Source of the DNA: an uncultured Coriobacteriia bacterium
Lineage (GTDB): Bacteria > Actinomycetota > Coriobacteriia > Anaerosomatales > CAVYJL01
NCBI GenBank assembly: GCA_963768865.1
Contig: CAVYJL010000008.1
Location: forward strand, 139,580 to 203,579
Reading direction: 5' to 3'
DNA length: 64,000 nt
In this document: in pieces, positions 1 to 31,689 of the stretch
How positions within the stretch are numbered: position 1 is the stretch's first letter
Layout: the number at the start of each line of letters is the position of its first letter
Position numbers and translations under genes: made by a program
Notes under the pieces: generated by a model
Told to the model about the DNA's origin: nothing
Databases searched by the model: none
What the model saw: only the letters and a program-made list of their open reading frames with translations

Positions 1-476
1 TCATCATCGGGTCGCTGGTGTTCGCCCTGCACATCCTCCCCTTCTGCGTGAAGGTCATGGAGGAGGCGATCCGTGCCGTGCCTCAGAGCTACCGGTCGGG
101 CGCGGCGGCGCTGGGCATGACGCGCTGGCGGACGATCAGGAAGGTCATCCTCCCCGCCGCGACGCCCGGACTCATCACGGCGACCGTGCTGGGGCTGGGC
201 ATCGTCGTGGGCGACACGGCCATCGTGATCCTGGCCGTGGGTGCCTCCGTGGAGATCAGCGGCGCGACCGCGTGGTGGCTCCCGTGGAACTGGCTGCCCG
301 CGCTGCTGGGCGGCGGACCCACGCTCACCACCTTCATCTACAACATGTCGCCTGCGGGCGAGTACAACTCGCCGATGCTCGCCTACGGCGCGGCCCTGGT
401 CCTCATCGTCGTCGTCTTGGGGCTCAACCTCGCGATCGCCTTCATCGGCCGCTCGGCCCGGGGCCACGAGTCGTGA
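1..476 (+). CDS. pstA: Phosphate ABC transporter permease PstA, C-terminal part (5' end lies outside the window)
   Basis: ORF 18..476 stays open to the window edge. It has a permease EAA-loop-like stretch (EEAIRAVPQSYRSGAAALGMTRWRTIRKVILPAATPG) and C-terminal TM helices. pstB follows 18 nt downstream. Confidence 0.85.
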   Translation, partial: IIGSLVFALHILPFCVKVMEEAIRAVPQSYRSGAAALGMTRWRTIRKVILPAATPGLITATVLGLGIVVGDTAIVILAVGASVEISGATAWWLPWNWLPALLGGGPTLTTFIYNMSPAGEYNSPMLAYGAALVLIVVVLGLNLAIAFIGRSARGHES

Positions 477-4495: not shown

Positions 4496-4573
4496 GCCCT
4501 CGTAGCTCAGAGGATAGAGCGGTGGTTTCCTAAACCATGTCTGTCGCAGGTTCGAATCCTGCCGGGGGCACCA
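4496..4573 (+). tRNA. tRNA-Arg (anticodon CCT), CCA encoded
   Basis: Cloverleaf folded by hand: acceptor GCCCTCG/CGGGGGC, D stem GCTC/GAGC, anticodon stem GTGGT/ACCAT with loop TTCCTAA (U33, CCT, A37), T arm GCAGG-TTCGAAT-CCTGC, discriminator A, CCA. The variable region is 7 nt, which is unusually long and may itself contain an indel. Confidence 0.85.
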
Positions 4574-16731: not shown

Positions 16732-16884
16732 CCGGCGAGGCGCCTCGCCTCGCCTCGGCAACGAGCTTTACACCGTACAGCGGCGGCGCCGTGGACATGA
16801 CGCCCGGAGCTTCAGGGTTGCCCCGCCGGGTATACCGAGCCTACAATGGCCGGTGCGCCGTTGGCGCGATTTGACAACACGAAG

Positions 16885-17070
16885 ATCTCATCCGTTAGGC
16901 GCGGCTCCTGTCGCGAACACAGGCCACTGCCCGGAAATGTCGAGAGACGCCAATGGGTAGAACAGCCCTCGCCGGCTTAAGGCGAAGGCTAAGGTGGCTG
17001 GCCCCGGACCTCCCTGAGGCGGGACTACCTACGTCCGACAGTGCCAAAACCGATGACGAGGGACGAGATC
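16885..17070 (+). promoter_or_regulatory. M-box (ykoK-type) Mg2+ riboswitch aptamer
   Basis: Block-by-block match to the B. subtilis mgtE leader as I remember it: GTTAGGCGCGGCTCCTGT, CTGCCCGGAAATGTCGAGAGACGCCAATGGGTAGAACAG, TTAAGGCGA, GCTGG and ACAGTGCCAAAACCGATGACGA. P1 is formed by CTCATCC / GGGACGAG. Confidence 0.9.
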
Positions 17071-24516: not shown

Positions 24517-25092
24517 CTACTGGGCGGCCGGCTTGGGTGTGGCGGGAGCCTTGAGGTCGGCGCCGGGCAGCGACTCGGAGACCTTGGGCGCGGCGTCCTT
24601 GGGAGCCGTGTCCTTTGCGGCCTTGAGGTCCTCGGGCGCGGCCTTGGCCACGTCCTGGAGCGTAGCGGCGCCCTGCTGGATGCCGGCGCCCGCCTTCTGC
24701 GCGGCGCTCGAGACCTCGGTCGCGGCGGTCTTGACGCCCTCGGTAGCGGCCTGCAGATGCGGCGTGACGCTCTCGGAGGTCTGGCCCACCTGCGCGCGCA
24801 GACGCTCGCGTGCCTCGTCGATCTTGGTCTTGATCTCGTCGGCCTTCTCGGAGTACTGAGACTTGCCCTGGTCCATGGCTTCCTGGATCTTGGCGGAGTT
24901 CTCGTCGTAGACGCCCTTGCCCTTCTCGACAAGGTCGTCCATCTGGGCCTGGATCATCTTGCGGCTCTCCTCGCCGGAACGCGGCGCGAAGAGGATGCCC
25001 AGCACGGCTCCGATGAGGCCGCCCAGCAGGAACGCAAGCAGCACGGCGAGACCGTTGCCTCCGCCGCCACCGCGGTAGTAACCATCATTCAT
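24517..25092 (-). CDS. YtxH-domain general-stress-type membrane protein
   Basis: N-terminal helix plus the YtxH signature (LLGGLIGAVLGILFAPRSGEESR), then long amphipathic Lys/Ala/Glu-rich repeats. Confidence 0.75.
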   Translation of the reverse strand: MNDGYYRGGGGGNGLAVLLAFLLGGLIGAVLGILFAPRSGEESRKMIQAQMDDLVEKGKGVYDENSAKIQEAMDQGKSQYSEKADEIKTKIDEARERLRAQVGQTSESVTPHLQAATEGVKTAATEVSSAAQKAGAGIQQGAATLQDVAKAAPEDLKAAKDTAPKDAAPKVSESLPGADLKAPATPKPAAQ

Positions 25093-25340
25093 GGCCGATC
25101 ACTCCTCCCTCTCCAAGGGTCGTACGAATAGAACGGCCCTCTAGGGCCGAGGCCATCCCGCAAGCAGGAACATACCCAGAGCCTGCCGCGCGCACACTGG
25201 TGACTGCCGAGGCGGCCGGTGGCTCTGACCTGCTGTGTCGTGCCTCCGAGTATGGCAGATGCTTACATGGCGGGCGAGCCACGCGGAGGCAACGGCGCGC
25301 GGGCAGGAGCCGGCGGCCGCCAAGGTCTCTGGCGCACGGC

Positions 25341-26294
25341 CTATCGCCTGCTCAGGGCCGCCTTCACGAGAAGGTCGCAGACCTGGGCGAAGGTGAGGCC
25401 TTGAGCCTCCACCGCCATGGGCAGCAGCGAGGTCTCGGTCATGCCGGGGCTCGTGTTGCACTCTATGACGACCGGCGTGCCGTCGTCCGTGAGGATGAGG
25501 TCGGTGCGCGAGACGTCGCGGCACCCCAGGATCGTGTGGACCTTCAAGGCGGCGTCGCGGACCGCGGCGTCCTGCTCCGGCGTGAGCCGAGCCGGCGCGA
25601 AGTACTCGACCGCGTCGGGCTCGAAACGCGCCTCGTAGGCGAAGACGCCGCCCCGGGCTACGATCTCCACGGGCGGAAGGGCGCACGGCCCCTCCCCGCC
25701 GCAGTCGTCGAGCACGGACACGGCGAGCTCGATGCCCTCCACGCGGTGCTCCACGAGCACCTTCGTGTCGAAGCCCAGCGCGCTGACGATGGCGTCGGCC
25801 AGCCCGGCCGGCTCGTCCACGCGCGCGAGGCCCAGCGCGGAGCCTTGCCGAGCCGGCTTCACGATGGCGGGCAATCCGCCTATCGCATCCGGGATGAGGT
25901 CGAGCGACCGGGCCGCGCCCATCTCCTTCACACCGTCCACGGACAACGCCACCGACGCCGGGACCGCCACGCCCTGAGCGGCGATGATGCGCTTGGACAG
26001 GTCCTTGTCCCAGGCCAGCGCGCTCGCGAGGACGCCGGGACCGGTGTACGGGATGCCCAGGAACTCGAGCATCTCCTGGATGGTGCCGTCCTCGCCGAGC
26101 TTGCCGTGCAGGGCGATGAACACCGCATCGGGCTTCTCGGAACGCAGCGTGTCCACGAGCTCGGGTATGAGGTCCAGCGCCACCACGTGGTAGCCCGACT
26201 CGCGCAGAGCGGACACCACGTGCGCACCGCTAGCCAGCGAGACCTCTCGCTCGAGGCTTCGTCCACCGGCCAGGACCGCGATCTTCTCGCTCAC
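25341..26294 (-). CDS. ddl: D-alanine--D-alanine ligase
   Basis: KIAVLAGGRSLEREVSLASG, ATP-grasp core and C-terminal ECNTSPGMTETSL. GTG 26294 overlaps the aminotransferase stop (GTGA) and has GAGGGGGA upstream. Confidence 0.9.
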   Translation of the reverse strand: MSEKIAVLAGGRSLEREVSLASGAHVVSALRESGYHVVALDLIPELVDTLRSEKPDAVFIALHGKLGEDGTIQEMLEFLGIPYTGPGVLASALAWDKDLSKRIIAAQGVAVPASVALSVDGVKEMGAARSLDLIPDAIGGLPAIVKPARQGSALGLARVDEPAGLADAIVSALGFDTKVLVEHRVEGIELAVSVLDDCGGEGPCALPPVEIVARGGVFAYEARFEPDAVEYFAPARLTPEQDAAVRDAALKVHTILGCRDVSRTDLILTDDGTPVVIECNTSPGMTETSLLPMAVEAQGLTFAQVCDLLVKAALSRR

Positions 26295-27604
26295 GAGCCG
26301 TCCCCCTCGGAAGTAGAACCTGCAGTCACGGGCGCCGGACCGCCCGCGCCCTCGTCGGCGATGGCTCCCGCCGACACGAACGCACGGTACACCTCCAGGC
26401 GGTCTTCGAGCACCTCGCCCAGACGCCGGATACCCTCGGTGATCTGCTCGGGCTCCGCGTAACAGAACGCGAGCCTCATCGAGCTGCTGCCGCGGCCGTC
26501 CGCGAAGAAGTCGTCGCCGGGCACGAAGGTCACGCCGTTCTCCACCGCCTCGGCAAGGACGGCGCCGGTGTCGACGTGCTTGGGCAGCGTGACCCACACG
26601 AAGAAGCCGCCCTCGGGGCGGGTCCAGCTCGCCTCGGCGGGGAAGTGCTCGGCCAGCGCGGCCAGCATCGCGTCGCGGCGCTCACGGTAGACGTCGGTCA
26701 GGTCGCGAAGCACCGCGCGCCAGCGTTCGTGGGCGAAGTAGTGGAGCACGACCGACTGGGTGAAGTTGCTGCCGCACAGGTCGGCGCCCTGCTTCGCGAG
26801 CAGGACGCGCGCGCGCACCGCGGCCGGTGCGGCCATCCACCCCAAGCGCAGGCCCGGCGCGAAGATCTTGGAGAACGTGCCGAGGTAGATGACGTCCGGG
26901 TCGATGGCCTTGAGCGGGAGGATGTGGCCGCCCTCGAAACGCAGGCGGCCGTACGGGTCATCCTCCACGACGAGAACCCGGTACTCGCGCGCAAGCTCCA
27001 GAAGGCGGCGCCGGCGATCGGGGGTCATGGTGACGCCCGCGGGGTTCTGGAAGTTCGGGATCGTGTAGATGAACTTGGCGCCGCCGGGCCCCAGCGCCGC
27101 GAGCTCGGCTTCGAGCAGGTCCATGCGCATGCCGTGCTCGTCCATCTCCACGGAGACGATATGCGGCTGATAGGCGCTGAAGGCCTGCAGCGCGCCCACG
27201 TACGTGGGGCCTTCGCAGATGATGGTGTCGCCCGGGTCCACCAGCGTCTTGGCCAGCAGGTCGAGCCCCTGCTGCGCGCCGGCCGTGACCACGATGTCGG
27301 CGGCCTTCACGCGCACGCCCGACTCGGCCATGAGCGCGACGATGCGTTCGCGCAGCCCCGGCACCCCGTCTGAGGAGCCGTACTGCAGCGCGGTGCCGGC
27401 GTCCTGGGCAAGGGCCTCTTGCAGGGCGCGGTTCACGGCATCGGTGGGGATGCGGCGTACATCGGGCATGCCGCCCGACAGCGAGATGACGTCGGGACGC
27501 GACGCCGCGGCGAACAGGTCCCTGACGGCGCTGCTGCGCATCGCGGTCATCCGCTCCGCGTAGCTGTCTTCCCATCGGTCGAAGGTGATCCTCGCGGTAC
27601 CCAT
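26291..27604 (-). CDS. PLP-dependent aminotransferase, class I/II fold (LysN/ARO8-like); specificity unknown
   Basis: SLSGGMPD.., NPAGVTM and PLP-lysine region GTFSKIFAPGLRLGW. ATG 27604 has GAGGAG 7 nt upstream. Confidence 0.85.
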   Translation of the reverse strand: MGTARITFDRWEDSYAERMTAMRSSAVRDLFAAASRPDVISLSGGMPDVRRIPTDAVNRALQEALAQDAGTALQYGSSDGVPGLRERIVALMAESGVRVKAADIVVTAGAQQGLDLLAKTLVDPGDTIICEGPTYVGALQAFSAYQPHIVSVEMDEHGMRMDLLEAELAALGPGGAKFIYTIPNFQNPAGVTMTPDRRRRLLELAREYRVLVVEDDPYGRLRFEGGHILPLKAIDPDVIYLGTFSKIFAPGLRLGWMAAPAAVRARVLLAKQGADLCGSNFTQSVVLHYFAHERWRAVLRDLTDVYRERRDAMLAALAEHFPAEASWTRPEGGFFVWVTLPKHVDTGAVLAEAVENGVTFVPGDDFFADGRGSSSMRLAFCYAEPEQITEGIRRLGEVLEDRLEVYRAFVSAGAIADEGAGGPAPVTAGSTSEGDGS

Positions 27605-27654
27605 CGTGTGCTCCTCGCACGAGGTTCCCGGGCCGGCTTCACGCCACATTCTGC

Positions 27655-27950
27655 CCAAGAACAGACAAACGCCCCCTCACCTCTGATAGGGCGAGGGGGC
27701 ATCGCGGTACCACCTATCTTCGCCCCTGCCGGATTCGCGCCGCGCCCCCTGAGGGGTGCCGCTCCGGCAGAGACCTTGTTGCCCGGATAACGGTCGGGAC
27801 CGTCCCGCTTCCGGTCCTCGGCCCTGCGGCCGCGACCCTGGCGGGGGACCTAGGAGGGGTGGCTGGGCCGCTCACGCGAGCCCTCTTCCCTCACGTCCGT
27901 GCTGTCGCTGTGCGGTTGTAAGACCCGTGCCGAATGCAACTCGCCGGGTG
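27655..27950 (-). promoter_or_regulatory. T-box riboswitch leader (transcription-termination type)
   Basis: On the minus strand the T-box sequence AAGATAGGTGGTACCGCG lies at 27703-27720 and the F-box CCGTTA lies upstream of it. A Stem III hairpin (CCGGA..TCCGG) is present, as is an AG-box-like AAGAGG with a GTGA-containing distal loop. The antiterminator stem is GGGCGA/TCGCCC. It competes with the terminator GCCCCCTC..GAGGGGGC (27671-27700), which is followed by GTTTGTCTGTTCTT. Confidence 0.75.
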
Positions 27951-27956
27951 TCGGGG

Positions 27957-27986
27957 ACGGTAGCACGGCACGCCGCCGCAGGTCAA
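27957..27986 (-). promoter_or_regulatory. Candidate promoter of the T-box leader
   Basis: On the minus strand, TTGACC (27986..27981), 18 nt, then TACCGT (27962..27957, TAnnnT type). It sits just downstream of the preceding lipoprotein gene. Confidence 0.45.
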
Positions 27987-28012: not shown

Positions 28013-28771
28013 CTACGGCTTCACCTGTTGCATCGTGTTCGCGATCACCAGAAGCTGGTCCGGGTCCTGCACCCACGACAGGAGCTCGTAGCGCACGCCC
28101 GACTCCACCCATTGAAGTATGGATGGATCCGGCTGCCGAGAGCCAGCTCCCTGCTCGGCGGGTCCCCGGGTCCTTGCGAAGCCGGGATTTCCCCTTATGG
28201 TGACCTTGCTCCACCGAGGTGCGACCTGCCCTGGCACGTACCGGCTGGGCTCGGGACCGAAATCCGAGGGGTTCGTCGGGGGCGTGAGAGTGCTGGTCGG
28301 ATACTCGGACACTAGGCTCGCGCCGTAGAGAAGCTCGCGGTCCGGATAGACCGCCGCAAAGCCGTGCTTTCGCGCGCCCCCCTTTCCGGCGACCAGCGAC
28401 CGGTCCGCGATCGCGCTCGCCTGTCCCACGACCGCCGGATCCGGGATCCAGAACGGGTGACCCGTCTTCTGAGCCGTGGACTGGGCCGCGTCCTTCAGGG
28501 TCGTGGGCGGGTGGACCAGGGATTCAGGCATGAACTCGTAGTTGACCACCGAGGGCGCCGACGCGAGTATCGAGCGTTTCTCCTCCAGCACCTTGATGGC
28601 CGCCGCCGCCGCCGCCGACACGGAGGCGGGCGGGACCGTGGACGTCTTGGACGACGGCGTCTTGGCCGAGGGCGGTGCAGGGGGTACAGGTGGCGCGACC
28701 GGCTGGCACCCTGCGAGGACTACAGCGCCCAAGCAGAGTGCGGCCAGGGTCAGCGCGGCGGGTCGGCTCAT
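28013..28771 (-). CDS. Hypothetical lipoprotein
   Basis: Lipobox LAGC after a signal peptide, then a Pro/Ser linker and a ~200-aa domain ending ..YELLSWVQDPDQLLVIANTMQQV. This loosely resembles DUF4367-type domains; the family call is weak. Confidence 0.6.
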   Translation of the reverse strand: MSRPAALTLAALCLGAVVLAGCQPVAPPVPPAPPSAKTPSSKTSTVPPASVSAAAAAAIKVLEEKRSILASAPSVVNYEFMPESLVHPPTTLKDAAQSTAQKTGHPFWIPDPAVVGQASAIADRSLVAGKGGARKHGFAAVYPDRELLYGASLVSEYPTSTLTPPTNPSDFGPEPSRYVPGQVAPRWSKVTIRGNPGFARTRGPAEQGAGSRQPDPSILQWVESGVRYELLSWVQDPDQLLVIANTMQQVKP

Positions 28772-28873: not shown

Positions 28874-30187
28874 CTACTTGCGCGGGTCGTTCACGACGCC
28901 CGCGAAGAGCACGCAGCCGCTGTCGTCGTCCACGATCGCGAAGACGAACGGCTGGTCCGCGGTGACCTTGATCGGTGCCGAGGGGACCTGCACCGCGCCG
29001 GCCATCATCTCCACGGAGGTTGCTGCCGCCGCCTCCGTCCCCTTCTCGTTCACGTCGATCGCGGTCGCGTGCTCGACGTCGCCTATCCAGATCTGGGGCG
29101 TGGGCCCGACCCGCATCGCCGAGAAATCCGCCCGCTTGCGGTCGAACGCCACCGGCATGCCCATCGCCGACAGGGCCTCGTTCAGGCTGCTGGAGTAGGA
29201 GGTCTTGAAGCGCGGAAGGGTGAGGTCGGCCCCGCGTGCCCGCAGAAGCGTCGACTGGTTCCGCGTGGCGGTCTGAGTCTCCAGCCAAGCCGGGACCACA
29301 GCCGCCACCTGGGCCGGCGTGCTGTCGGCCTTGGGCACGAAAACGTACATGGACGTCCGGTACGGGCGGGTGCTCGACCCTAGGTCCTTGTACGGGATCC
29401 GGGCCGCGGCGAACCGCTGGGTCTCGTAGCCGGAGAGCCCCTCGAGCCCGTGCATCATAGGGACCTCGGCGGTCGACCCGTCCGCGAGGTGGAACGGCTG
29501 GTCATGGGTGGAGCTCGGCTCGAAGGGGGTCTCCCAGTCGTTCTTGAAGTACACCGCGTTGAGCAGGAACAGGACGGCTCCCGTGTCGACCCTGCTTACG
29601 AGGTGCTGGATCTTACCCGCGGTCTGCGAAGCCACCCACGAGTTCATCAGGTCGGCGGCGCCGGGCGCTGCCAGGTCCAGACTCTGGATCTGCGCGCCGA
29701 AGCAGTCCCGGTCCGTGGCCAGGAACGGCTTGGACCACTGCACGCCGGGGTCGGCGAAAAGCGCGTTGGCGACTCGCACCGTTGCCGCCTTGGTCCCGGT
29801 AGGTATCTGTGAGAGGAACCGAGCGTACGCACGGTCGGCGCTCTCCAGGTGCGACGGCTCCTCGCCCAGCACCGCCGCCATCTGTCGCCGGGTCTCGCCG
29901 GCGGCGCCGTTGGCGGTCATGGTCAGGGCCGTGTGCACCGAGAGGGGCGAGACCACCACGTTGTCCCCGCCGCGCCGCGAAAGCTCGCCGAGCAGTCTGA
30001 ACCCGAACGAGTCGATGGCTCGACTGAGGTCTTCCGAGGACGAGGGCGGGGCGCTCGCGCGCGCTTCGGCAGGCGCCGCGGCAGGCACAATGACCGCGCT
30101 CGGAGGCAGGGGGCGGGGCACGACGGAGCACCCGTAGACGCTCGAAGTGAGAAGTGCGGCGAACAGCGCGACAAGTACTCGGGTCAT
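28874..30187 (-). CDS. Serpin (serine protease inhibitor) lipoprotein
   Basis: ATG 30187 follows AAGGGAGAG. Lipobox is SSVYGC. Serpin hallmarks are NAVYFKNDWETPF, the hinge EKGTEAAAATSVEMMAG and the C-terminal FVADQPF-like VTADQPFVFAIVD. Confidence 0.85.
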   Translation of the reverse strand: MTRVLVALFAALLTSSVYGCSVVPRPLPPSAVIVPAAAPAEARASAPPSSSEDLSRAIDSFGFRLLGELSRRGGDNVVVSPLSVHTALTMTANGAAGETRRQMAAVLGEEPSHLESADRAYARFLSQIPTGTKAATVRVANALFADPGVQWSKPFLATDRDCFGAQIQSLDLAAPGAADLMNSWVASQTAGKIQHLVSRVDTGAVLFLLNAVYFKNDWETPFEPSSTHDQPFHLADGSTAEVPMMHGLEGLSGYETQRFAAARIPYKDLGSSTRPYRTSMYVFVPKADSTPAQVAAVVPAWLETQTATRNQSTLLRARGADLTLPRFKTSYSSSLNEALSAMGMPVAFDRKRADFSAMRVGPTPQIWIGDVEHATAIDVNEKGTEAAAATSVEMMAGAVQVPSAPIKVTADQPFVFAIVDDDSGCVLFAGVVNDPRK

Positions 30188-30261
30188 CGGGGCTCTCCCT
30201 TGTCGGTTCCCCCTACACAGGTTCGACGCGCGCTTTAGAGAGATGGTTCGCGAGTGCGCCC

Positions 30262-31689
30262 CTAGTATGCTCCGCGCCCGTGGACCACGGCGCCCACCGT
30301 GCGGGCCATGATCGAGAAGTCGAGCCACGGAGACCAGTTCCAGATGTAGTTGAGATCGAGAGACACCATCTCGTCGAAGGTGAGCTCGCTGCGCCCGAGC
30401 ACCTGCCACAGCCCGGTGATGCCGGGGGTCACACGCAGACGCTTGGTGTCCCAGTCCGTGTATTCGGCGACCTCCCGAGGCAGCGGCGGTCGTGGTCCCA
30501 CCAGGCTCATGTCGCCCTTGAGCACGTTGTAGATCTGGGGGAGCTCGTCCAGGCTGAACCGCCGGATGAAGCGGCCTACCCTGGTCACGCGCGGGTCGGA
30601 CTGCATCTTGAATATGGGCCCGGTGGCCTCGTTGAGCTTGAGCAGCTCGTCCTTCTTCCTGCCGGCGCCGTTCACCATGGAGCGGAACTTGTACATCGTG
30701 AAGGGCCTACCGTCCTTGCCGATGCGCTCCTGGCCGTGAAGGATGGGGCCCGGCGTGTCCAGCACGATCGAGACCGCGACGACCGCCTGGACCGGCAGGG
30801 ACACGATCAGGATCAGCGTGCCCAGCACCAGGTCCATGGCCCGCTTCGCGAAAGCGAGACCGGGGGTGAGGGTGGTGCGCTGGAGCGTCATCACCGGCAC
30901 GCCCTCGATCTCGTCGGTCTTGGGGTCGGCCGCCGAGATCTCGAAGAACCTCGGCACGACGGAAACGTCCACGCCGCAGTCGCAGCAGCGCTCGATGATC
31001 TCGAAGATCTTGCAGAATCCGTCGGACGAGAACGCGACGAGAGCGTGGTTGACCTGTTCGTTGCGCAGGATGCGCTCGAGGTCGCGCACGTCCGTGTACA
31101 TGGGCAGGCCGAGCTTGTCTCGCTCGGGCAACGTCATGGGGTCCGGGTCCAGGAAGCCCACCGGCGTCAGGCCCAGACGCGGGTTGCGGATCATCTTGTC
31201 GGCCATGAGGACGGCCACGTGCCCGGCTCCGATGATGAGGGTGCGCTTCTCGGTGGCGCCCCGCAGGCGAGCTCGACTCTGCAGATAGCGCACGATCATC
31301 CGCTCCACCGGCAGCAGGACCAGCGCCATAGCCCAAGCCAGCACCGCGACCTGGTAGCCCAGGAGGTTGTCCTGTCCCAAAAGGCCGCTGGCCAGGATCA
31401 CGACCGTGAGCCGGAGCATCGTGGCGACACTGACGCCCGCCGCGAGCTTGGGCCACTGGTCGATGACCGAGAGATCGATCTTGCGGTCGTACAGGCCTAT
31501 GGCCCAGAAGACGAGCGGCCAGATAGCGACCGCCCAGAACGCCTGGGTGAGGTACAGCGGCAGGACCGAGGAAGCGGCCCCGCCGGCACGGTACACGAAA
31601 GCCGTGGCGATCTCGTATGCCGCCACGACCGCCAGCGTGTCCCCGACGACGAGGGCCGTGGTGACCACGGCCATCGAACGTTCGGACAT
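30262..31689 (-). CDS. Polyprenyl-phosphate hexose-1-phosphate transferase (WbaP/PssY-type priming sugar transferase)
   Basis: N-terminal TM bundle, a central Rossmann-like region and a C-terminal bacterial sugar-transferase domain (KRAMDLVLGTLILIVSLPV..; PGPILHGQERIGKDGRPFTMYKFRSM; DELPQIYNVLKGDMSLVGPRP). The start is uncertain (31689, 31728 or 31779). Confidence 0.85.
   Translation of the reverse strand: MSERSMAVVTTALVVGDTLAVVAAYEIATAFVYRAGGAASSVLPLYLTQAFWAVAIWPLVFWAIGLYDRKIDLSVIDQWPKLAAGVSVATMLRLTVVILASGLLGQDNLLGYQVAVLAWAMALVLLPVERMIVRYLQSRARLRGATEKRTLIIGAGHVAVLMADKMIRNPRLGLTPVGFLDPDPMTLPERDKLGLPMYTDVRDLERILRNEQVNHALVAFSSDGFCKIFEIIERCCDCGVDVSVVPRFFEISAADPKTDEIEGVPVMTLQRTTLTPGLAFAKRAMDLVLGTLILIVSLPVQAVVAVSIVLDTPGPILHGQERIGKDGRPFTMYKFRSMVNGAGRKKDELLKLNEATGPIFKMQSDPRVTRVGRFIRRFSLDELPQIYNVLKGDMSLVGPRPPLPREVAEYTDWDTKRLRVTPGITGLWQVLGRSELTFDEMVSLDLNYIWNWSPWLDFSIMARTVGAVVHGRGAY

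Follow-up and report, generated by a model that had tools for sequence, protein, structure and literature searches.

A probable alanine-specific T-box riboswitch with a truncated Stem I upstream of an aminotransferase–ddl operon in Coriobacteriia

Does the charging state of a tRNA set the level of an enzyme of cell-wall precursor synthesis? The question is raised by a leader region in a stretch of 64,000 nucleotides from an uncultured Coriobacteriia bacterium (GenBank assembly GCA_963768865.1, contig CAVYJL010000008.1, positions 139,580 to 203,579; hereafter the window), in which an earlier note, made from the sequence alone, had described a T-box followed by an aminotransferase gene and by ddl, the gene for D-alanine--D-alanine ligase. 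The leader spans positions 27986 to about 27605 and hosts all elements from promoter through terminator; all leader and operon coordinates refer to the minus strand of the window. Here we present comparative evidence that the element, judged by its core features, is almost certainly a T-box riboswitch, and we argue that it is a tRNA-Ala T-box of the truncated actinobacterial type which likely governs the aminotransferase–ddl operon by transcription attenuation.

A genome scan with one genome per species yielded 80 loci of aminotransferase relatives, 49 of which carry a leader of this kind in front of the orthologous gene. In nearly all loci of the group with about 70% identity the motif GGTGGTACCGCG precedes the gene by 80-100 nt, with a one-base variant in L011, whereas no Eggerthellaceae locus (the group of about 60% identity) has it upstream; neither our own covariance model (R1, built from the genome leaders) nor Rfam detected a T-box within 3 kb upstream of the Eggerthellaceae operon. 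Given 48 leaders and no prior input, RNAalifold returned most of Stem I, the base and top of Stem II, part of the IIA/B pseudoknot, Stem III and the antiterminator, with compensatory changes at 22 of its 40 predicted pairs. The full named structure comprises 47 pairs, pseudoknot included, and was compared with controls in which the 3' partners were slid by 1-3 columns. Among the genome leaders 91.6% of the positions are paired against 38-51% in the slid controls, and 25 pairs have changes in both partners. The covariation score reaches 0.227, while that of the controls stays at or below 0.075; no shuffle reached the observed values. A metagenome test set of about 90 sequences, independent in that it was unused in building the structure model, gave 94.7% paired against 38-53%, and here too 25 pairs covary. 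Under model R1 the window leader reaches 126 bits and its relatives 133-176 bits; the model finds exactly one leader per T-box locus and none elsewhere in the window. The T-box call of the earlier note, for which covariation among orthologous leaders had been proposed as a check, thereby gains strong support in the genome and metagenome sets alike: covariation is seen in the antiterminator, in Stems I, II and III and in the IIA/B pseudoknot, and these elements follow one another in the canonical order. One member is rearranged. On L018, a contig from a metagenome-assembled genome (MAG), the discriminator half is intact, but the 5' half of Stem I sits some 260 nt farther upstream in inverted orientation, separated from it by unrelated sequence (1-20, minus strand, and 278-317, plus strand), reflecting either an inversion or a misassembly.

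Stem III is succeeded by GAAGAUAGGUGGUACCGCG and then by the antiterminator. Compared with the canonical 14-mer AGGGUGGNACCGCG, whose UGGN bulge can pair with the 3' NCCA of the tRNA, the T-box sequence lacks one G. In its form GGUGGUACCGCG it is exact in 48/49 genome leaders (L011 ends in GUG) and in 89 of the 97 metagenome members, the other eight being three one-base variants and five sequences cut by a contig end. Natural variants include GGUGGUACAGCG, a C to A change next to helix A2 (L123 and L173), and UGGUCCC in place of UGGUACC (L165). A relaxed form of the motif, with up to two mismatches, was uninformative in the window (13 matches against 15.7 expected), and a second T-box-like 13-mer at position 684 of L062 was rejected because it lies inside a coding sequence. 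The antiterminator is 100% paired, and its helix A1 shows compensatory changes in 20 and 3 of 48 genome sequences (UA in 28 against CG in 20, and AU in 45 against UA in 3) and in 40 and 13 of the metagenome sequences, giving the forms AUAGG/CCUAU, ACAGG/CCUGU and AUUGG/CCAAU.

The 3' strand of the antiterminator is shared with a terminator, so that the two folds are mutually exclusive. A terminator with U-tract that uses this strand, as set out in the earlier note, is present in all 50 leaders inspected: the hairpins have a mean energy of -20.5 kcal/mol, and the 10 nt after them include 5-9 U even though G+C makes up 65-77% of the leader segments. A terminator scan calls the window hairpin with 14 pairs. 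By itself the antiterminator amounts to -5.2 kcal/mol in the window and -6.2 kcal/mol on average across the leaders (range -4.5 to -7.6), and because it is so much weaker than the terminator the default state would be OFF. In the window 63 nt separate the end of the hairpin from the start codon, and in relatives 26-92 nt do; the GAGGAG ribosome-binding site lies outside the hairpin. We therefore consider it highly likely that the leader is built for transcription attenuation and not on the sequestrator design of the actinobacterial ileS T-boxes.

Which tRNA does the leader read? Stem I is short, and its internal loop has AAGA on the 5' side and R-GCC-A-C on the 3' side. The earlier note, from a fold that it held to be insecure, had placed GCC-A (Ala) in AGCCAC opposite AAGAG; the loop AGCCAC is indeed there, opposite AAGA. 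To let the codon vary, a metagenome scan was run with the Stem I pattern and with five loop bases, the codon among them, as wildcards. It gave 105 stretches, of which R1 matches 92 at 52-176 bits, and GCC is invariant in 97/97 metagenome family members as in 49/49 genome leaders, about 146 members in total. Eight further matches with other 'codons' (CTC, CAG, AAT and others) were considered as sibling T-boxes and set aside as unrelated sequences that have no T-box features downstream. The base after GCC is A everywhere except in L036, where it is G, and hence always a purine, while the base before it varies (A 67 against G 32 in the metagenome scan). tRNA-Ala carries A73. Published specifier rules call for a purine after the codon, for C at its third position, where purines of Stem II read G34, and for a UGGN bulge that pairs with the discriminator base and CCA (PMC7583486). 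GCC-A and a Stem II reading G34 accord with these rules, and the UGGU bulge fits tRNA-Ala(GGC) with A73. We thus hold with high confidence that the T-box is alanine-specific, with specifier GCC and anticodon GGC.

The helices that frame the specifier support this fold. Stem I covaries: in L032 GAGGG becomes GACGG together with CCCUC to CCGUC, the base occurs as GGAC/GUCC, GAAC/GUUC or AGAC/GUCU, and the top helix has five double changes in the metagenome set. A conserved asymmetric internal loop (5' GU, 3' C-R-(Y)-A-N) separates GGAC/GUCC from GAGGG/CCCUC. RNAalifold proposed a register in which the top of Stem I pairs with GCC itself. We prefer GGGC/GCCC, because longer top helices (WIN, L003, L022, L025, L033, L056, L062) extend it inward, because single C-to-U changes keep G·U pairs, and because the innermost pair 22/51 accounts for the five double changes just mentioned. 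Downstream, the base and upper helices of Stem II covary, with base variants CCGC/GCGG and CCGG/CCGG, around an invariant internal loop of GGAAG and CAG; the loop is purine-rich, its letters differing from the loop-E consensus AGUA/GAA. The F-box CCGTTA and the Stem III named in the earlier note are both present. Among leaders the F-box reads CCGUUA or CCGGUA, all four pseudoknot pairs change on both sides, and all eight pairs of Stem III covary, flanked by (Y)GAGG or AAGG on the 5' side and by invariant GAAGA on the 3' side.

At the other end of the leader, the promoter TTGACC-N18-TACCGT proposed earlier is present, and the boxes TTGAC and TAnnnT, spaced 17-19 nt apart (18 nt in most cases), recur at the same position in 47/49 orthologous leaders. 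A simple sigma-70 scan misses it; only 3/6 bases of the -10 box equal TATAAT. Directly after the inferred transcription start, CAAC(C/A)C precedes a 5' hairpin, P0, which folds in nearly all of the 47 leaders, its structure kept while sequences and loops vary. P0 is no part of any described T-box architecture. A role as elbow platform is unlikely, because its loops are not conserved; that it stabilises the 5' end is a guess. The features of the leader and operon are collected in Table 1.

Table 1. Leader and operon features, with positions in the 64-kb window, listed in the direction of transcription
Feature	Positions	Strand	Details
Promoter, -35 box TTGACC	27981-27986	minus	read directly in the sequence
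Promoter, -10 box TACCGT	27957-27962	minus	actinobacterial TAnnnT type; 18-nt spacer from -35
5' hairpin (P0)	27923-27949	minus	between inferred transcription start and Stem I
Short Stem I, 53 nt	27846-27898	minus	GGAC/GUCC, GAGGG/CCCUC, internal loop, top hairpin GGGC..GCCC
Probable specifier GCC (Ala)	27861-27863	minus	followed by A at 27860
Stem II	27804-27845	minus	conserved internal loop CAG / GGAAG (S-turn-like)
Stem IIA/B pseudoknot	27782-27803	minus	ACGGU-CCCG-ACCGU-UAUC-CGGG; contains F-box
F-box CCGTTA (RNA CCGUUA)	27788-27793	minus	
Stem III	27722-27775	minus	then invariant purine run GAAGA
T-box sequence	27703-27715	minus	AGGTGGTACCGCG (= AGGUGGUACCGCG); only exact copy in the window
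Antiterminator	27686-27717	minus	A1 AUAGG/CCUAU, 7-nt bulge UGGUACC, A2 GCG(A)/(U)CGC
Predicted intrinsic terminator	27668-27703 (hairpin), 27657-27667 (U-tract)	minus	U-tract UGUCUGUUCUU; uses antiterminator 3' strand
Ribosome-binding site GAGGAG of aminotransferase	27611-27616	minus	
Aminotransferase, 437 amino acids (aa), fold type I	26291-27604	minus	ATG 27602-27604, 52 nt after U-tract
ddl, D-alanine--D-alanine ligase, 317 aa	25341-26294	minus	GTG start
Terminator-like hairpin	25134-25149	minus	about 190 nt after ddl; likely operon end
YtxH-like gene	24517-25092		next after operon-end hairpin

The leader opens onto two genes, the second of which is securely assigned: Ddl reaches 315.5 bits with NF002378 (cut-off 243) and 261.5 with TIGR01205 (cut-off 245.65), and both PF07478 and PF01820 are present. 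As the earlier note observed, the TGA stop of the aminotransferase gene and the GTG start of ddl overlap as GTGA (26291-26294). The pair is found in almost all of the 80 Coriobacteriia loci, with or without a T-box. At the T-box loci the junction is a 4-nt overlap in 27/48 cases and most of the others have at most 46 nt, a few loci having unreliable stop calls. Downstream of the metagenome leaders an aminotransferase follows in 69/69 contigs with room for it and ddl in 40/41. Gene overlap or short gaps and conserved order mean that read-through should express both genes, and the proposed coupling of ddl to the T-box leader accordingly finds support; we think it likely, from this gene arrangement, that the T-box controls ddl through read-through. 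An apparent aminotransferase–Ddl fusion in L035 and L039 proved to be an artefact of the stop search; in L035 a stop is present and the spacer measures 40 nt. Inside the aminotransferase coding region (26607-26621, minus strand) there is also a terminator-like hairpin, CCGCCCCGAGGGCGG with CTTCTTCGTG after it, which is probably a chance match; the region holds three terminator-like sites against 1.0 ± 1.0 expected. In Eggerthellaceae (L047-L080; Eggerthella, Gordonibacter, Raoultibacter and others) a gene of about 140 aa lies within a few nt upstream of the aminotransferase–ddl pair and consists of a cyanophycin synthase-like N-terminal domain only (PF18921, E about 1e-6; for example L059 2411-2995 and L067 2529-2996).

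The first gene is less readily named. Membership in PF00155 (130.7 bits against a cut-off of 19.7), without a helix-turn-helix domain, bears out the class I/II aminotransferase of the earlier note; the protein belongs to the KAT-II/LysN/MocR-domain branch. It has thousands of relatives, the closest of them at about 70% identity in Coriobacteriia MAGs labelled Anaerosomatales, Coriobacteriia or Actinomycetota. The closest solved structures (1x0m/3aov, 1wst, 2egy and 2zc0) match over the full length with E values of 1e-106 to 1e-76 and comprise a Pyrococcus KAT-II homologue, a Thermococcus multiple-substrate aminotransferase, Thermus LysN and a Thermococcus alanine:glyoxylate aminotransferase (2zc0); they share the fold type I branch with the protein studied here, and none is reported to adjoin ddl or to be under a T-box. 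Throughout the family (P0002-P0120) the JGI name is '2-aminoadipate transaminase', which no curated NCBIfam equivalog backs; the alanine T-box and the pairing with ddl point to some other role. As a rule, the specifier of a T-box corresponds to the amino acid whose pathway is regulated, a principle used in PMC2494555, and the simplest prediction is therefore an alanine-forming transaminase. By analogy with such T-box genes we consider alanine formation a reasonable prediction, held with less assurance than the assignment of the riboswitch.

Several observations weigh against a transcriptional tRNA-Ala T-box, and the rival explanations draw on some of them. The earlier note had tied its T-box call to a hit by the Rfam covariance model RF00230, and on that formal count the call fails. 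At the gathering threshold the Rfam scan of the window gave an M-box and a tRNA and no T-box; at E ≤ 10 on three nested sub-regions only a 15-bit local match appeared, against a threshold of 93 bits; the Stem I part of the model found no match in the 5' half of the leader; and the model matched none of the 20 orthologous loci tested. Such misses would be expected if the element were not a T-box and its 13-mer were a chance or convergent feature of some other leader, an explanation that we regard as extremely unlikely: the local match covers model positions 183-216, exactly the antiterminator, and nine of the 12 defining T-box features are present or compatible, several with covariation support, in an order that is canonical. 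Since RF00230 derives from T-boxes with a long Stem I and fails equally on all 20 orthologous loci, and since the comparative evidence is independent of it, we do not take the miss as a refutation. The architecture itself raises further objections. The AG-box and distal-loop-like Stem I elements of the earlier note are absent: no AG bulge or distal loop (the interdigitated T-loop, tRNA-elbow platform) was found in Stem I, which ends above the specifier loop in a plain hairpin of 4-7 bp with a variable loop, and the stretch upstream is the separate, variable P0 hairpin. An elbow-binding platform has been described as essential or generally needed for transcriptional T-boxes (PMC7583486). By inspection, no canonical kink-turn (K-turn) could be placed at the base of Stem I, where tandem G·A pairs were not found. 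The pair at the base of helix A2, where a G·U wobble is described as the primary steric sensor of the aminoacyl group (PMC7583486), is G-C in 48/48 genome and 80/81 metagenome members and G·U in one metagenome member. Finally, the window contains no tRNA-Ala gene, its sole tRNA gene being tRNA-Arg(CCU) at 4496-4573 (plus strand). The actinobacterial ileS T-boxes, for which a truncated Stem I has been described, are translational (PMC7583486; TBDB, PMC7778990), and together with interrupted U-tracts such as UGUCUGUUCU this speaks for a hairpin that is not a terminator, regulation then being translational or acting through RNA stability. We consider this improbable, given that the hairpin ends well short of the start codon, excludes GAGGAG and is followed by U-tracts in every leader despite the high G+C content. 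A different specifier is more improbable still. Read as a T-box for another amino acid, the leader would present CCA (Pro), ACC (Thr) or AGC/GGC (Ser/Gly). The first of these overlaps with GCC and is conserved as well, and CCG in L036 would still be a proline codon; moreover, UGGU fails to separate Ala from Pro, since bacterial tRNA-Pro also has A73. Yet the base after CCA and after ACC is an invariant C and not the conserved purine, ACC overlaps the paired CCCUC strand and is replaced by GCC in L036, the A/G variation before GCC would flip AGC/GGC between Ser and Gly, and CCA breaks the third-position C rule (PMC7583486). The downstream genes, too, concern alanine.

If the alanine T-box is accepted, the reach of its control and the product of the first gene can still be read in other ways. 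ddl may be expressed largely from a promoter of its own inside the aminotransferase gene, the T-box then mainly controlling the aminotransferase. The Eggerthellaceae pair lacks the T-box and has gaps of up to 266 nt, so that ddl can be expressed in another manner, and the promoter scan is blind to actinobacterial promoters, missing even that of the leader. Against this stand the 4-nt overlap in the window and in over half of the T-box loci with short gaps in most others, the lack of a conserved terminator between the two genes and the absence of a second ddl from the window; we regard an internal promoter as the main source of ddl expression as fairly improbable. A greater share of doubt attaches to the enzyme. 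No NCBIfam equivalog reaches its cut-off, and the role in alanine supply rests on context: among the named equivalogs compared (LysN-type 2-aminoadipate transaminase, PdxR, MppQ and alanine aminotransferase) the best is PdxR, at 264 against 320 and over the enzyme domain only, and the alanine aminotransferase model NF006230 gives 94.7 against 534. The T-box could be assigned correctly and the aminotransferase nonetheless be a 2-aminoadipate, aromatic, broad-substrate or cell-wall-precursor enzyme, as the JGI family name and the nature of its closest solved relatives (KAT-II homologue, multiple-substrate aminotransferase, LysN) would suggest. We judge this unlikely, though the least unlikely of the alternatives, in view of the normal match between T-box biosynthetic genes and specifier amino acid (PMC2494555), of the alanine:glyoxylate aminotransferase among the close solved relatives, and of the pairing of the gene with ddl across the whole class.

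A model for how the operon may be regulated by tRNA-Ala follows from these features. According to the model, transcription starts at the conserved TTGACC-N18-TAnnnT promoter, and the leader would fold into the 5' hairpin, the truncated Stem I with GCC-A in its side loop, Stem II, the IIA/B pseudoknot and Stem III. When uncharged tRNA-Ala builds up, its anticodon is predicted to pair with GCC and its free 3' A73-C-C-A with the UGGU bulge. We infer that this pairing stabilises the weak antiterminator (about -6 kcal/mol) against the terminator (about -20), such that RNA polymerase reads into the operon; charged tRNA-Ala would be unable to stabilise the antiterminator, and transcription would stop at the U-tract. 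The aminotransferase would then make L-alanine from pyruvate, and Ddl would be translated from the same mRNA, in most members via the 4-nt stop/start overlap. In physiological terms, alanine shortage would raise both the supply of alanine and the capacity to capture D-alanine for peptidoglycan precursors, and raised Ddl may help to sustain D-Ala-D-Ala synthesis when the alanine pool is low.

Elsewhere in the window lies an M-box (magnesium) riboswitch (16884-17070, plus strand), a full-length RF00380 match of 124.6 bits. Two genes upstream of the T-box operon, an open reading frame (ORF) of 511 aa (28874-30409, minus strand) encodes a complete serpin domain (PF00079, 309 bits), a kind of protein that few bacteria have. 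The 252-aa ORF that separates it from the leader (28013-28771) has no Pfam match.

The leader can be compared with two groups of known T-boxes. The actinobacterial ileS T-boxes (Mycobacterium tuberculosis, Nocardia farcinica; 'class II' in TBDB) come from the same phylum. Like the window leader they are without the double T-loop elbow platform, carry the specifier in a side loop, as in the 'intermediate' type, and have Stem II, a IIA/B pseudoknot with F-box, Stem III and a UGGN bulge. They occlude the ribosome-binding site, act on the translation of ileS and have AUC as their specifier, whereas the window leader has a terminator and U-tract well upstream of the ribosome-binding site, GCC, an extra 5' hairpin and non-synthetase genes. 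With the canonical transcriptional T-boxes of Firmicutes (RF00230; tyrS, glyQS and Ala-specific alaS leaders) it shares the competition of antiterminator and terminator, the 7-nt bulge UGGUACC, a purine after the codon, C as the third codon base and default OFF. It differs from them in having no AG bulge, distal loop or recognisable K-turn, in its RF00230 score of 15 against 93 bits, in AGGUGG in place of AGGGUGG (one G fewer) and in a G-C in place of a G·U at the base of A2. What is known here is thus the T-box core; what differs are three usually listed features and the failed Rfam threshold. Where a T-box bears on the cell wall, the closest parallel in concept comes from staphylococci, in the glyS T-box (PMC4574755, PMC12256121). 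In both systems the supply of a cell-wall amino acid is tied to tRNA status, but in Staphylococcus aureus the synthetase is regulated and the wall link runs via tRNA-Gly for the pentaglycine bridge, whereas here Ddl itself is in the operon.

T-box surveys of Actinobacteria report mostly ileS (PMC2494555), and a proposed Corynebacterium his leader was considered doubtful by its own reviewers (PMC3896937). Full-text literature searches returned no T-box upstream of ddl, none in Coriobacteriia and no alanine T-box on an aminotransferase, a mention in the tables of key surveys being possible. Taken jointly, and only tentatively, the features described here might make this a transcriptional T-box without elbow platform, canonical K-turn or G·U sensor that relies on a Stem I/II anticodon clamp, perhaps together with the 5' hairpin; it may be the first case in which tRNA-Ala charging sets the level of Ddl, along with a co-regulated and so far unrecognised alanine-supplying enzyme of Coriobacteriia, including gut Eggerthellaceae.

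Our work describes a conserved T-box lineage of about 140 sequences that is invisible to the standard Rfam model, and because Rfam misses it, censuses of T-boxes in Actinomycetota, which list largely ileS only, are incomplete. The combination of a truncated Stem I with an intrinsic terminator runs against the current view that transcriptional T-boxes require an elbow platform for fast tRNA capture, and the G-C pair in place of the G·U sensor offers a natural test case for the sensing of aminoacylation. The alanine specifier gives a testable function, that of an alanine-forming transaminase, to a widespread gene now labelled '2-aminoadipate transaminase' or 'PLP-dependent aminotransferase family protein'. 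With ddl under a probable tRNA-Ala sensor, the synthesis of cell-wall precursors in these bacteria would be linked to the charging of tRNA with alanine.

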